From assembly GCF_003334785.1 (NCBI RefSeq), contig NZ_QOWV01000013.1: a stretch of DNA of 64,000 nt; one strand, given 5' to 3'. Below are positions 91 to 62,746 of this stretch, piece after piece. The notes beneath the pieces are model-generated. The model did no database searches. It worked only from the letters and a program-made list of their open reading frames with translations, and was not told the origin of the DNA. Made by a program: the position numbers and the translations under genes. Source of the stretch: Escherichia coli. GTDB taxonomy: Bacteria > Pseudomonadota > Gammaproteobacteria > Enterobacterales > Enterobacteriaceae. The first letter of the stretch is position 1. Every line of letters begins with the position of its first letter.

Positions 91-948
91 TCAGCCTAAA
101 ACTGCCAGTTTTTCGAGCGTTTCGAAGCCGTAACGCTGTAAAACGGGCAATAATTGTTCAGCTCCTGGCGTCATTGCCATACAAAAGGCAATATTCGCAT
201 CGGCAGATTTTGCATCCGGGGCTTCATGTTCTAACAACCAGGCCGTTCGGCGAGCAATCGCTGCGCCAGAATCCACCAGCCGGGTTCCCTCTGGCAGCAC
301 TTGTAACAGTTCTTCTTGTAGTAGAGGGAAATGGGTGCAACCCAATACAACGGTATCTGGCGGCTCTTTCATTCTTAACCACGGGCGTAGGATACGTTTT
401 AGTGCATCCAGAGAAACATCTTCGCCATGTAGCTTCGCTTCAGCCAACTCAACCATCTCTGCCGAGCCCAGCATTTCTATCTGGCATTCATTAGCGAAAC
501 GCGCGATCAGCTCATGAGTATAAGAACGTTTAACTGTTCCGCGGGTTGCCAGTAATCCGACAATGCCATTTGCCGTCAGACGTGCAGCAGGTTTAATCGC
601 CGGCACGACACCAACAACCGGGAAGTCGAACTTTTCGCGTAATGCAGGAAGTGAAACGGTACTGGCAGTGTTGCAAGCGACCACAGCCAGCGCAAGGGGA
701 TAACGTTCTTGCACCGCGGTGACAATTGCCACCACTCGCTCAACAATAAACGCTTCGCTTTTTTCGCCATACGGGAAAGCGACGTTATCGAAAGCATAAA
801 TGTAATGGAGATCCGGTAAGAGATGCCGGATCTCGTCATAGACCGACAACCCACCGACGCCGGAGTCAAACACCAGCACGGTGGGACGTGGTTCAGAAGG
901 TGTAGCTGCCAGACAAGGTGTATTCCCGTCCTGCAGTTTGGTAGCCAT
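91..948 (-). CDS. murI: Glutamate racemase (285 aa); annotated start is an internal ATG of the 289-aa ORF 91..960
   Basis: ORF translation [33 protein letters not shown] matches MurI; 5' end overlaps the btuB 3' end. Confidence 0.93.
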
Positions 949-2737
949 AGACTGTCTCATAATCTTTGTCGAACAGGTTGGCTATTTTACCACGAACTGT
1001 CAGGTGAGAGGTGACCGGATACGCAACCGCAAGATCCCACAAGCTCACACCGCCCATTTTAACGGTTTGATAAGGATAAGATGAGTAATCCTTATCATAG
1101 CGAGTGCCTAAATACTGATAAGTAATACCCCAGTCGAAGTCATACAACTGCCAGTCGAGCTGGTATTTCACCTGCTGTTTAGCACGGCGTAACAACGGCG
1201 TGTCGGTAATCGCATTGCGCGCATCGACATAATCATAACTCACAGTATGCGTCAGTGGTCCGGTATCAAAATTGGCGGTCGCCTCGACGCCCTTAATCCG
1301 CGCTTTCCCTTCGTTGTAATATTTCAGGGTGTGATCATCATAATCGATCAAGTCACTGACATCGTTACGATATCCGGAAATACGCCAGTTCACCCCAGCG
1401 GTTAAGCCTTCAAACGCGCCTTCCCACTGTTTGCTTTTCTCCGGGTCCAGATTCGGATTTCCGTAGAAGCCATACAGTTGCCCCAGATTTGGTGCCTTAT
1501 AAGATGTCCCGTAGGAAGCAATGAAGCGATAACCTTCGATGAATTCCCAACCGGCGCTGGTTTGCCAGGTTCCATGACGACCAAACTGTGAGTTATCGTC
1601 ACTGCGTGCTGCGCCTTCAAAGGTAAAATCGCCGACTTGTTGCAGCCCGGTCAGATAGATGCCGGTATTACGTTGATCATATCCATCCTCAACATAACCT
1701 GTACCCGGCGTCGTAGTCTGTTTCTGCCAGTCGACACCCGCACCAATACTACCGTGACCAACGATGACATTGTTTGCCCACTGGACGGTGTATTGCTTCA
1801 TCTCATCGAGCGTCGCCGACGAATCATAACGACCATAATGGGGATCGTAGTTGTAATCTTTGCTATGGCTATAGCTGGTAATGAGTTGTGATTTAATCAG
1901 TTCGCCGTTATAGCGCAGCCCGGCGTCCCAACTTTGGCTATAGAGTTTACGGGTATCGAGCAACGGTGAACCGGGAGAATAATACGCGTCATAATTGGTA
2001 CGGTTATCATAGCCATAGCCGCGCACAAAGCCGCTCCAGGCATCAGTAAAGTTATGCTCCAGCGCGCCATAAAGCGTTTTACTTAAAAAACCATCGTTAT
2101 CTGTCTGCGCTTGCGTTCCGGTATTACCATAGGCAACAACATCATAACCATGAGTATGGGCATAATCGCCCAACAGCGTTACCCGTGTCTTATCCCCCAG
2201 TTGTTGCTGCGTAGAGACATCATAGTTCTGATAACTATTGCTTCCCCACCCTGCTGAAATTTCCGTTCCGGGTTCATCGCGCGTCGTGATGATATTCACC
2301 ACCCCGCCTATTGCATCGGAACCATAAACAGCGGAGCGCGGCCCACGGATATATTCAACACGCTGGACAAGCGCAATAGGGAACTGGCTAAGGTCGGCAG
2401 AACCACTCACCCCCGCCAGATTCAGGCGTACGCCATCAATTAACACCAACACATGACTGGCATTTGTACCGCGAATAAAAATAGATGAGAGCTGACCTGA
2501 ACCGCCGTTTTGGGTGATATCGACGCCCGGAAGACGGCGCAGCACATCATTGACCGAGGTCGACTGCCAGCGGTCGATATCCTGACGGGTCACAACGGTG
2601 GTTGGTGCAAGCACAGTGCTGCGCGGCTGTTCAAAACGGTTAGCAGTAACGACGAGAGTATCCGGGCTGGTATCCTGTGCCCAAGCGGAAAATGCCGTGA
2701 CGGAACACGCCGTCAGCAGCGAAGCTTTTTTAATCAT
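893..2737 (-). CDS. btuB: TonB-dependent vitamin B12 outer membrane transporter (614 aa precursor)
   Basis: ORF 893..2782 contains [23 protein letters not shown] signal peptide and C-terminal terminal-Phe beta-barrel (..LSGSYTF); start taken at the MIKK methionine. Confidence 0.95.
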
Positions 2738-2977
2738 TGTAAAGCATCCACAATAGAAGAAGGATGCCGCAGGTTTCATCAATATTACGCGATGATGAGA
2801 ACCAGATGCGACGTTGGCCGGCAGGTCTTCGGGCTTGGAGGGGTATCTAAGATACTAAGAGATGATGACTTCCCACCGAATGGCAGTGTCCGCATAACGC
2901 AATCATCGCACCTTTCCTTACCGCTGCGCGTCAGCTCCAGATTCGCACTGGATTCCCTATTAACTCACAGGACCGGC
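2738..2977 (-). promoter_or_regulatory. btuB 5' leader containing the adenosylcobalamin (B12) riboswitch
   Basis: Minus-strand sequence begins GCCGGUCCUGUGAGUUAAUAGGGAAUCCAGUGCGAAUCUGGAGCUGACGCGCAGCGGUAAGGAAAGGUGCGAUGAUUGCGUUAUGCGGACACUGCCAUUCGGUGGGAAGUCAUCAUCUCUUAG.., which I recognise as the E. coli btuB leader, about 240 nt upstream of the btuB ATG. Confidence 0.85.
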
Positions 2978-3105
2978 AAGTGGATGCTACAGGTTGTAAC
3001 AAGTTACTGTCCAGACGTAGCTCACAAATAGGAATTCATCAAGATCTGGACATCTGATGAGCAATCCCTACAATCGCCGCGTACTTTAATTTTTCAGGAT
3101 ACATC

Positions 3106-7981: not shown

Positions 7982-8094
7982 GAAACGGAGCGGCACCTCT
8001 TTTAACCCTTGAAGTCACTGCCCGTTTCGAGAGTTTCTCAACTCGAATAACTAAAGCCAACGTGAACTTTTGCGGATCTCCAGGATCCGCTTTT
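7982..8094 (+). ncRNA. oxyS: OxyS small regulatory RNA (about 109 nt) with intrinsic terminator
   Basis: Sequence GAAACGGAGCGGCACCTCTTTTAACCCTTGAAGTCACTGCCCGTTTCGAGAGTTTCTCAACTCGAATAACTAAAGCCAACGTGAACTTTTGCGGATCTCCAGGATCCGC followed by a T8 run; divergent from oxyR. Confidence 0.9.
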
Positions 8095-18787: not shown

Positions 18788-19115
18788 GATGGGTTTGCTG
18801 CGGCGCAGAAAGCACTTTGCGCACCGCGCTCATTACCCGCTGCGGCTCACGCAGGAATGCGTAGATGCTGCATTGCACATAGCGGCAATGTTCAAATCGC
18901 TCGGCACCGGCAAGCTCGATATCCGTAATCAACAGAGCAACATCCGCCCGGCGGATATCCTCATCCGCTAAACGATTCTCCGTTCCCAGCGCGCCCTGAG
19001 TTTCAATGCTGACTCCCCACTTCTCTAACAGGCACAACTTTTCCAGCCGTTCCGCCGCCATATAAGTATGCGCCACGCCGCTTACGCAGGCGGTTACTGC
19101 CACCAGGTATGCCAT
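18774..19115 (-). CDS. frwD: PTS fructose-like EIIB component (113 aa)
   Basis: ORF contains MAYLVAVTACVSGVAHTYMAAERLEKL (PTS IIB Cys motif); annotated start internal to the 134-aa ORF. Confidence 0.88.
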   Translation of the reverse strand: MAYLVAVTACVSGVAHTYMAAERLEKLCLLEKWGVSIETQGALGTENRLADEDIRRADVALLITDIELAGAERFEHCRYVQCSIYAFLREPQRVMSAVRKVLSAPQQTHLILE

Positions 19116-38204: not shown

Positions 38205-38302
38205 GCCTGATGCGCTACGCTTATCAGGCCTACGTCATATTGCAATTTATTGAATTTGCACGAACTTGTAGGCCGGATAAGGCGTTCACGCCGCATCCGG
38301 CA
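38205..38302. repeat. RIP/BIME-1-type element in the metJ-yiiX spacer
   Basis: gcctgatgcgctacgcttatcaggcctacg..tgcaatttattgaatttgca..gtaggccggataaggcgttcacgccgcatccggca; near-identical to the copy at 28366..28465. Confidence 0.8.
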
Positions 38303-57584: not shown

Positions 57585-57692
57585 GCCGGATGCGGCGCGA
57601 ACGCCTTATCCGGCCTACAAAAGTTTGCAAATTCAATAAATTGCAGAATTCATGTAGGCCTGATAAGCGAAGCGCATCAGGCATTTTTGCTT
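57585..57692. repeat. RIP/BIME-1-type element in the sbp-pfkA spacer (inverted relative to the copies at 28366 and 38205)
   Basis: tgccggatgcggcgcgaacgccttatccggcctaca..tgcaaattcaataaattgca..gtaggcctgataagcgaagcgcatcaggca. Confidence 0.8.
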
Positions 57693-58881: not shown

Positions 58882-59784
58882 TTATGAAAGCATAGACCGT
58901 TTACCCTCCCTGGGTACGACGGAACAGGGGTCCTGATGGATAATTACATCCGATCCCGGAAAACGCCGTAAAATAGCCTGCTCTACCTGATCCGCCACCA
59001 TATGTGCCTGAACCAAAGGCAGAGAGTCTTCCATTTCCAAATGAATCTGAATAAAGCGGGTCGGCCCTGACTGCCGCGTGCGAAGATCGTGAGCGCCGCT
59101 AACACCCGGCCAGGAAGTCACGATATCAATAATTTCTTGCCGTTCCTCATCAGGCAATGCGCGATCCAGTAATGACTGTACCGCCTCATATCCCATGCGT
59201 AACGCGCTATATAAAATATAGATGCCGATTCCCAATGCAAACAGAGCATCGGCGCGATGCCAGCCGTACCAGGACAACCCCAGCGCCAGCAGAATTGCGC
59301 CGTTCATCATAACATCAGACTGGTAATGTAGCATATCAGCCCGCACCGCCTGGCTTTGCGTCCGCCGCACCACCCAACGCTGAAACGAGACAAGGATAAT
59401 CGTACAAATTAGCGCCACAATTGTCACGATAACCCCGACGCCTGGATCTGTCATCGGTGTTGGAGATATCAGATGTTGAATACCCGTCAAAAACAGGAAT
59501 AGTGCCGAACCGGAGATAAACATACTTTGCGCCAGCGCCGCGAGGGACTCAGCTTTACCGTGACCAAACGAGTGATTATCGTCGGCAGGTTGCAGGGAAT
59601 ATCGCACCACCAATAAATTCGTCAACGACGCGCCGATATCCACCAGCGAATCCACCAGCGCGGCGAGAATACTCACCGACCCGGTATACCACCATGCAAA
59701 AATTTTAATCAGCAATAGCAGCGAAGCCATCGCCGTCGCAGCAATCGCCGCCCGACTGACCAGCCGTCCATAAGATTGATTCAT
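58882..59784 (-). CDS. fieF: Cation diffusion facilitator Fe/Zn efflux transporter (300 aa)
   Basis: ORF contains [81 protein letters not shown]. Confidence 0.93.
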
Positions 59785-59865
59785 AAATACTCCCGCTATC
59801 AACTGACGCTAGTATAACGGAAGCAAATCATCTGCAATGCATTAAGCAGCAGGCAAATTGAGGAT

Positions 59866-59923
59866 AAAAAAAACCCCCACAGCATGTGGGGGAAGACAGG
59901 GATGGTGTCTATGGCAAGGAAAA
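59866..59923 (-). ncRNA. cpxQ: CpxQ small RNA, processed from the cpxP mRNA 3' UTR
   Basis: Minus strand reads UUUUCCUUGCCAUAGACACCAUCCCUGUCUUCCCCCACAUGCUGUGGGGGUUUUUUUU, ending in the cpxP intrinsic terminator, just downstream of the cpxP stop. Confidence 0.75.
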
Positions 59924-59932
59924 CAGGGTTTA

Positions 59933-60433
59933 CTACTGGGAACGTGAGTTGCTACTACTCAATAGCTTCAACGATGAACTTTTTTGCCATTGCGTCACGT
60001 CACGCAACTGCTCCATTCGTTGTTGATGTTTCTCGTTTAAAACCGCTTGCTGCTCCGGCGTTAACAGGCGATACATTTGGTTGCGGACTTTTGCCATCTC
60101 AACCTGACGAGCAATTTGCTCATTCGCCATTTTTTCTGCCTGTGCGCGCACAGCGTTTTCATCAAAATTTTCTGCGGTGACAAGGCGATGCATTGTCTCC
60201 AGTTCGCTAACATTAACAGGAGGCTGTTCGTGCCGGGCCTGTTGCATAAGATCTCGCATCTGCTGACGCTGATGTTCGGTTAAACTTATGCCGTCGAACA
60301 TATGGCTCTGCGTACTGCGCTGCGTAAGTTCTTCACCCGGATGCCAGTTATCGCCTGAACCGACTTCAGCAGCGTGGCTTAATGAACTGACTGCCAGCGT
60401 TGAGGCCATGACGGCAGCGGTAACTATGCGCAT
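59933..60433 (-). CDS. cpxP: Periplasmic Cpx pathway inhibitor/adaptor CpxP (166 aa)
   Basis: ORF contains [70 protein letters not shown]. Confidence 0.94.
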
Positions 60434-60512
60434 CATTTGCTCCCAAAATCTTTCTGTCGCGATTCAACGATAGAGAGTTTACGATTCAGGCTGCAAACAT
60501 GCGTCAGGGGGT

Positions 60513-60527
60513 GTAAAACAACGTAAA
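60513..60527. promoter_or_regulatory. CpxR-P binding site (GTAAA-N5-GTAAA) in the divergent cpxP/cpxRA control region
   Basis: GTAAAacaacGTAAA matches the CpxR box consensus exactly. Confidence 0.75.
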
Positions 60528-62651: not shown

Positions 62652-62667
62652 ACTTCGCATTTGCAGG

Positions 62668-62746
62668 CAGGATAAGGCGTTTACGCCGCATCCGGCATTT
62701 GAGCAGGATGCCTGATGCGACGCTGATAGCGTCTTATCAGGCCTAC
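62668..62746. repeat. REP pair in the cpxA-yiiM spacer
   Basis: ggcaggataaggcgtttacgccgcatccggca ... gcctgatgcgacgctgatagcgtcttatcaggcctac. Confidence 0.8.

Follow-up and report, generated by a model that had tools for sequence, protein, structure and literature searches.

What does the short stretch of DNA between cpxP and fieF encode, on which strand, and does it do more than end the cpxP message? In the window, meaning the whole 64,000-nucleotide (64-kb) stretch that was analysed, a preliminary description had reported a GC hairpin and U-run on the minus strand just after the cpxP stop and had matched them to the small RNA (sRNA) CpxQ. Both observations hold: the hairpin is present and is detected by a terminator scan (59892..59874), and minus-strand 59923..59866 agrees at 58 of 58 positions with the ncRNA cpxQ (b4716) of Escherichia coli K-12 MG1655, which occupies 4106330..4106387 of NC_000913.3 (58 nt) and starts 10 nt past the last base of cpxP. 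Downstream of the stop codon at 59935..59933 the minus strand reads UAAACCCUG and then UUUUCCUUGCCAUAGACACCAUCCCUGUCUUCCCCCACAUGCUGUGGGGGUUUUUUUU, with its last base at 59866. The interval originally proposed, 59866..59932, does contain CpxQ (58 nt, 59866..59923) but is too wide for the RNA itself, as it also spans a 9-nt linker and corresponds to the whole 67-nt 3′ untranslated region (UTR). Because exactly these 58 nt are annotated as cpxQ in MG1655, we place the mature RNA at 59923..59866.

The window carries the annotated and published 58-nt sequence (UUUUCCUUGCCAUAGACACC...), including the C at position 11 on which the published C11G mutant depends (PMC6755755). Its cpxP–fieF stretch is 100% identical to MG1655 and to many other E. 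coli strains, and the cpxP–cpxQ and cpxQ–fieF spacings are equal in the window and MG1655. A 29-nt core occurs as a single copy in the 64-kb window, with a chance expectation of 0 even when three mismatches are allowed, and our own correct-strand covariance model, built from other species, gives one strong match in the window, at 59866..59923 on the minus strand (90.4 bits). Identity, anatomy, conservation, published pairings and the literature agree in supporting this interpretation: the segment is almost certainly cpxQ, the gene for the Hfq-dependent sRNA CpxQ. CpxQ is already known and annotated in K-12 and is a textbook sRNA derived from a 3′ UTR. The primary discovery paper is reportedly Chao and Vogel 2016 (Mol Cell 61:352); the seed and cleavage-site details used here rest on reviews and on papers later than that one. 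The parts of the gene and its parent transcript are as follows.

60513..60527, plus strand: perfect CpxR box GTAAA-N5-GTAAA in the cpxR–cpxP intergenic region (motif scan).
59933..60433, minus strand: cpxP coding sequence (CDS), the parent mRNA (homologues named CpxP with PF07813 LTXXQ; the open reading frame reaches an upstream ATG at 60436).
59935..59933, minus strand: cpxP stop codon TAG.
59924..59932, minus strand: 9-nt linker UAAACCCUG from the cpxP stop to the CpxQ 5′ end; processing context CCCUG before the cut and UUUU after it.
59866..59923, minus strand: mature CpxQ sRNA, 58 nt (identity to b4716 and covariance model).
59911..59923, minus strand: unpaired 5′ seed, CpxQ nt 1–13, UUUUCCUUGCCAU (minimum free energy fold; invariant in 80 species).
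59894..59910, minus strand: stem-loop 1, CpxQ nt 14–30, AGACA / CCAUCCC loop / UGUCU (predicted in 30 of 30 distinct variants).
Within 59894..59910, minus strand: loop and 3′ side of stem-loop 1, a second conserved segment, single-stranded or weakly paired.
59874..59892, minus strand: terminator hairpin CCCCCACA-UGC-UGUGGGGG, 8 bp, of which 6 are G-C (terminator scan, covariation).
59866..59873, minus strand: 3′ U-tract, 8 U (sequence, terminator scan; 99% conserved).

The 58-mer has a minimum free energy of −17.4 kcal/mol (z = −2.8; 1 of 200 shuffles folds as well), in a predicted structure that leaves nt 1–13 unpaired and continues with a 5-bp stem-loop (nt 14–30), an 8-bp terminator hairpin (nt 32–50) and eight U residues. 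A hairpin with a U-tract is the usual Hfq-binding 3′ end (PMC9438474). It is also what any terminator at the end of a gene looks like, and the scan over 2 kb returned 3 sites against 2.3 expected from shuffles, as might be anticipated if the segment served cpxP simply as its 3′ UTR and Rho-independent terminator and had no separate function. Comparison across species bears directly on that reading.

Loci for this comparison were found through the CpxP protein and not through the RNA. The initial protein search returned only near-identical Escherichia CpxP, and diversity came from a representative set and a protein-anchored genome scan: E. coli CpxP was aligned with representatives at 41–60% identity, and the alignment was used in one scan of species-representative genomes, yielding 80 Enterobacteriaceae loci with CpxP identities from 62% to 98%. 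The CpxQ core was located 5–32 nt past the cpxP stop in all 80. Mean identity to E. coli, expressed as the per-position fraction of the 80 species, was 0.999 for CpxQ nt 1–35, 0.79 for the rest of the hairpin, 0.99 for the U-tract and 0.40 for the next 83 nt downstream, compared with 0.751 for the last 180 nt of the cpxP CDS (0.606 at third codon positions). The CCCUG before the cut was 96–99% conserved in these species though it lies outside the mature RNA. A review describes the CpxQ region as the most conserved part of the cpxP gene (PMC9438474). Seven outgroup loci from Erwinia, Pantoea, Yersinia, Brenneria, Musicola and Sodalis, obtained via named CpxP orthologues, also have an intact CpxQ core after cpxP (64.7–92 bits with our own model, always on the cpxP strand). 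The arrangement seen in the window, an RNA in the 3′ UTR on the cpxP strand that ends at the cpxP terminator, is shared by the 80 and the 7 other species. The sole divergent CpxQ among the 80 species was that of Trabulsiella guamensis (locus positions 2017..2084; 53 bits with our own model), which retains nt 1–28 while its 3′ part has been exchanged for a different, longer segment with a new terminator.

The 8-bp stem and 8-U tract form a Rho-independent terminator, and the stem is backed by covariation. In a model-based alignment, terminator covariation reached 0.193 versus 0.051 in shuffles, with 0 of 500 shuffles as high and all slid registers far below; compensatory changes, with both sides altered, occur at 5 of the 8 terminator pairs across species, and the 15 terminator arm types found among the variants all stay complementary. 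Every one of the 30 distinct CpxQ variants, folded singly, gave two hairpins and a U-tract. We used per-variant folding and the model-based alignment because MAFFT put GCC-type terminator stems out of structural register, although terminator covariation in the MAFFT alignment points the same way. Stem-loop 1 is invariant, and covariation therefore neither supports nor opposes it. A terminator has no need of the 31 invariant nt upstream of its stem, nor would it explain why nt 1–35 are 99.9% conserved while the stem drifts with compensatory changes and the CDS stands at 75%. Published work in E. coli moreover includes Northern blots, seed mutants with their compensatory counterparts, and phenotypes of deletion strains (PMC6755755, PMC4817254), and a plain terminator is an extremely unlikely account of the segment.

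The preliminary description had further taken fieF to be convergent with cpxP, with the same hairpin lying downstream of fieF as well. Neither statement survives. The fieF gene lies on the minus strand like cpxP, in the following arrangement.

58882..59784, minus strand: fieF CDS, downstream of CpxQ and in the same direction (open reading frame, MG1655 annotation, 80-species comparison).
59811..59816, minus strand: TATACT, likely −10 element of a promoter of fieF's own.

Of the 80 species, 66 have fieF downstream in the orientation of cpxP and none has it in the reverse orientation; the other 14 lack it within the 1.5-kb flank. Read on the plus strand, the hairpin has an A-run before it and AAGACAGGG after it, with no U-tract, and for this reason it terminates in one direction only; the terminator scan listed no plus-strand site at the hairpin. 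The start of fieF is 81 nt downstream of the CpxQ U-tract, and the gene probably has its own promoter in this 81-nt spacer, judging by TATACT, which recurs in other genera. The motif C(C/G)(G/T)(C/T)TATACTAGC recurs ahead of fieF in many species, and a strict promoter scan did not pick up TATACT at 59811..59816. The corrected orientation of fieF is one practical gain for a window that in itself has little new significance.

The strand of the RNA is also at issue in Rfam. At gathering thresholds, Rfam 15 reports no family at the CpxQ locus. In a permissive scan the best sub-threshold match was Hrs1 (RF02628), on plus-strand 59866..59938, with 41.4 bits against a threshold of 56.4 (E = 9e-7); with this score, and on the strand opposite cpxP, the window does not belong to the Hrs1 family as modelled. 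The other permissive matches (NsiR1, anti-hemB and others) were rejected as chance terminator look-alikes. Elsewhere in the window, Rfam matches above threshold were the OxyS sRNA (7982..8091, plus strand), a cobalamin riboswitch (2803..2992, minus), a ClpQY promoter element (43911..43968, plus), an L31 ribosomal protein leader (39247..39299, minus), a naRNA4 element (62666..62743, plus) and two ES036 elements (57620..57661, plus; 38226..38267, minus).

Since the sole notable Rfam match at the locus, at 41.4 bits, is to Hrs1 on the plus strand, a functional RNA could be sought there, in the orientation that Rfam gives to Hrs1. We see practically no chance of this. On the plus strand the hairpin is not followed by a U-tract, and the scan shows nothing there that resembles a promoter. 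Hrs1 was originally described in Erwinia amylovora as a 74-nt RNA that depends on Hfq and lies between cpxP and fieF, on their strand (130070..130143, plus) and with a terminator (PMC4070566, Table 1). The Erwinia and Pantoea loci that pass the Hrs1 threshold (83.4, 68.2 and 64.6 bits) do so only antisense to cpxP, with matches on the minus strand and cpxP on the plus strand (L084 2005..2078, L085 2029..2101, L086 2011..2084), and the Hrs1 model consensus opens with AAAAAAA and then a hairpin, as a terminator does when read in reverse. From these matches, the Rfam Hrs1 model appears to represent the wrong strand, reverse-complementary to the true RNA, and Rfam 15 has no usable CpxQ family. The location, strand, terminator and Hfq dependence of Hrs1 (PMC4070566) identify it as the CpxQ of Erwinia, and E. 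coli would fall below the Hrs1 threshold because the model is reverse-complemented and tuned to Erwiniaceae, and not for a biological reason.

Among the matches listed, PGAP-annotated E. coli genomes carried no feature under the CpxQ sequence. This silence and the missing Rfam match reflect a gap in Rfam and not the absence of the RNA: of 5,426 complete E. coli genomes, all but one (5,425) have the 67-nt 3′ UTR. The Rfam gap, together with an Hrs1 family that is too narrow and apparently on the wrong strand, accounts for the failure of automated annotation to report CpxQ in thousands of E. coli genomes. The K-12 version is the minority form, with 899 genomes at least 99% identical and 4,518 (~83%) one base off. 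In the one example checked, the differing base was in the terminator loop (window 59882), UGC in K-12 versus UGA, leaving the stem, tail and seeds untouched; UGA is the commonest loop in other genera and is also found in phage WPhi. One recoded laboratory strain, E. coli B95.deltaA, has TAAGTTTG and not TAGTAAAC at the cpxP stop and following bases (its positions 693..700, equivalent to window 59928..59935), a change that sits 5–10 nt upstream of the CpxQ processing site.

How the RNA is made can be compared with the literature. GTAAA-N5-GTAAA is the consensus of the CpxR box in the Cpx regulon. The motif has one match in the 64 kb against 0.08 expected, and the match is upstream of cpxP. Cpx control of cpxP has been described (PMC4817254), and CpxQ acts alongside CpxP in the Cpx response (PMC9438474, PMC4817254, PMC6755755, PMC10250213). 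What follows on cleavage by RNase E, binding to Hfq, repression of targets and CpxQ physiology is as reported in the literature. RNase E frees CpxQ from cpxP mRNA, mutation of the conserved cleavage site abolishes CpxQ, and Hfq both sharpens the RNase E cut and protects CpxQ (PMC9438474); the RNA naturally bears a 5′ monophosphate and has a half-life of more than 16 min (PMC10250213), and in Yersinia pestis an Hfq CLIP peak falls on the cpxP 3′ UTR (PMC6635623). Relative to the RNase E motif, RN before and WUU after the cut (PMC5222698), the U residues at +1, +2 and +3 of the CpxQ 5′ end fit, but −2 is U and not a purine.

Some sRNAs from 3′ UTRs arise as primary transcripts (PMC9438474), and CpxQ could in principle be of this MicL type, started from a promoter of its own within the end of cpxP. 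We give this origin scarcely any credence: there is no promoter-like site on the minus strand from 59924 to 60100, a start with U is disfavoured and a construct with its +1 at the native end starts a few nt upstream (PMC10250213), and dependence on RNase E and a natural 5′ monophosphate have been reported (PMC9438474, PMC6755755).

Under the preferred reading, in which CpxQ is cut from cpxP mRNA, we considered features upstream of the cut. A-R-N triplets are the Hfq distal-face motif, and two runs of them precede the processing site.

59948..59959, minus strand: AGUAGUAGCAAC, four consecutive A-R-N triplets in CpxP tail codons.
59929..59937, minus strand: second A-R-N run, AGUAGUAAA.

In the 50 nt before the cut, A-R-N triplets covered 18.3 versus 2.4 nt, with at least 3 triplets in 80 of 80 Enterobacteriaceae, an enrichment for which the Ser-rich CpxP tail and common descent are confounders and which is absent upstream of the cut in the seven outgroups. 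The motif persists past earlier stop codons in some species. These runs might constitute a hypothetical Hfq distal-face platform for CpxQ processing. A precursor helix that would mask the seed (AUGGCAA in the cpxP CDS with UUGCCAU in CpxQ) was rejected as a conserved feature, being found in 10 of 81 loci and only in the Escherichia/Citrobacter/Salmonella clade.

CpxQ represses nhaB, skp, agp, ydjN and fimA (PMC9438474, PMC5736990) and, in E. coli, cfa, in which a compensatory mutation partly makes up for C11G in the sRNA (PMC6755755); by lowering Skp in E. coli it keeps outer membrane proteins from being wrongly inserted into the inner membrane (PMC4817254). We examined pairing with contiguous-helix scans on K-12 target regions, which replaced a long-query duplex prediction that gave unrealistic loops, and compared the results with the published sites (PMC6755755 and PMC10250213). 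By computation, the conserved seed can pair with validated targets: CpxQ nt 4–11 pair with cfa at about −135..−128, with C11 opposite the G of the published mutant pair (PMC6755755); nt 7–18 pair with nhaB at about +299..+310 of the CDS, including a U7:G pair, as published for E. coli; and nt 3–13 cover the Shine-Dalgarno sequence of skp. Nt 18–25 (ACCAUCCC) are complementary at 8 of 8 positions to skp −20..−13. Shuffle statistics are weak for such short seed helices, and the value of these predictions therefore lies in their coincidence with published sites. A site in the 5′ region of cpxP was also sought, as a cause of the reported drop in CpxP production, and was rejected as unconvincing: there was no helix of at least 7 bp there, and the duplex energy was no better than that of shuffles. 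Grabowicz et al. likewise could not predict a CpxQ site in cpxP.

Taken together, transcription would run from the CpxR-activated cpxP promoter through cpxP and end at the hairpin and U-tract (59892..59866). RNase E, guided and then shielded by Hfq, would cut 9 nt past the stop, between CCCUG and UUUU, to free a stable 58-nt RNA with a 5′ monophosphate, of which nt 1–13 and the stem-loop-1 region (about nt 17–31) would base-pair with target mRNAs, among them those of nhaB, skp, cfa, agp, ydjN and fimA, blocking translation or promoting decay by RNase E. One transcript would in this way supply both a periplasmic protein, CpxP, and a cytoplasmic riboregulator, each relieving envelope stress.

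The 3′ part of cpxQ also coincides with a phage attachment site.

59863..59909, minus strand: attB, 47-nt core of WPhi-type P2 phages (CpxQ nt 15–58 plus AUC), unoccupied.

The window matches the attP of phage WPhi at 46 of these 47 positions, the sole mismatch being the loop allele. In WPhi (AJ245959.1 253..299) the core reads in the sense direction, follows ogr at a distance of 112 nt and precedes the convergent int gene; some 50 or more further Peduovirus records, of phages from Escherichia, Salmonella and Yersinia, contain it too. The phage-borne segment, comprising the last 44 nt of cpxQ, includes most of stem-loop 1 with the second seed, the terminator and the U-tract. E. coli strain 167 has an occupied site: a P2-family prophage separates CpxQ from fieF, with a direct repeat of 47 nt at its two ends (CpxQ nt 15–58 plus ATC; copies at L094 20024..20070 and L095 ~19041..19087). 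Its cpxP-side junction has a full-length CpxQ (92.5 bits with our own model) with the loop UGA, as in WPhi, and its fieF-side junction has a copy without the 5′ seed (56.9 bits) with the loop UGC. If the attP of the strain 167 prophage carries UGA, the crossover took place 5′ of the loop and the CpxQ terminator of this lysogen is phage-derived. Site occupancy was inferred from counts of BLAST places: of 5,426 complete E. coli genomes, 791 have the core joined to the WPhi int-side arm and ~835 have a split cpxP–fieF junction, so that the attachment site is occupied in roughly 15%.

These observations raise a further explanation for the conservation, namely that WPhi-type integration and excision overwrite and homogenise host nt 15–58, and that the phage and not sRNA function maintains the sequence. 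At least 50 P2-family phage records do contain the 47 nt, some 15% of complete E. coli genomes have an occupied site, and the strain 167 junctions, which differ in their loop alleles, show that phage sequence replaces part of the host copy. Yet nt 1–14, outside the phage core, are equally invariant; the terminator, the likeliest part to be replaced by a phage, is the most variable across genera; and genera with a terminator unlike that of WPhi still retain nt 1–31. Maintenance by phage is consequently very unlikely.

Other insertions were seen next to CpxQ. A Citrobacter locus has a 1.27-kb insert after CpxQ that ends in a partial second copy of the CpxQ 3′ half, and in Brenneria and Musicola a phage-type integrase gene comes right after CpxQ. 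Immediately past the U-tract, several of the 14 loci without a nearby fieF show a ATCAATCACTTA-like junction similar to the WPhi arm; these shared junctions suggest that related elements have inserted at one site in several genera.

One paper, on prophage Wphi1 in E. coli W, names the WPhi site 'cpxP-fieF' (PMC3032704), and another lists it by its coordinate, 4104392 (PMC3448106); each was written before CpxQ was known and regards the site as intergenic. In the literature searched, we found no paper that links CpxQ with a phage attachment site or calls the site an sRNA gene, and one may exist elsewhere. A long-known attachment site of P2-family phages, used in ~15% of complete E. coli genomes, thus falls inside cpxQ. 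It is possible, though we consider it doubtful, that the site is more than a landing pad, with lysogens expressing a host–phage chimeric CpxQ and the phage ogr transcript ending in a truncated CpxQ look-alike that has no 5′ seed and keeps the Hfq-binding module and second seed. If so, this look-alike could, while the phage develops, be a competitor for Hfq or regulate some of the CpxQ targets. Only this overlap of cpxQ with the WPhi attachment site and the orientation problem in Rfam go beyond the textbook account.

Other phages also attach at the 3′ end of a small RNA gene: phage 186 in tRNA genes, Fels-2 in ssrA, and P2-type prophages of E. coli W, B and Crooks at rybB and cyaR. Their cores, like that of WPhi, duplicate the final portion of the RNA gene, and one of the two junctions therefore again holds a complete gene after integration (PMC3448106, PMC3032704). 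The WPhi site differs from these in having been described as intergenic before CpxQ was known.

Among sRNAs, the CpxQ of K-12 (2016) is the same gene as the one described here, equal in sequence, position, strand, terminator and seeds, with no difference. Hrs1 (Zeng and Sundin 2014), which aligns with the cpxP 3′ UTR and CpxQ, is its Erwinia orthologue, described two years earlier and reported to be conserved only in Erwinia. SroC (from gltI), SdhX (from sdh-suc), NarS and GlnZ resemble CpxQ in being freed near a stop codon and using the parent's terminator, in their 5′ monophosphate and Hfq binding, and in having a seed more conserved than the parent CDS (PMC9438474, PMC5222698). Unlike them, CpxQ is shorter, makes up nearly the entire 3′ UTR of a monocistronic mRNA, and serves the same stress response as the protein encoded upstream.
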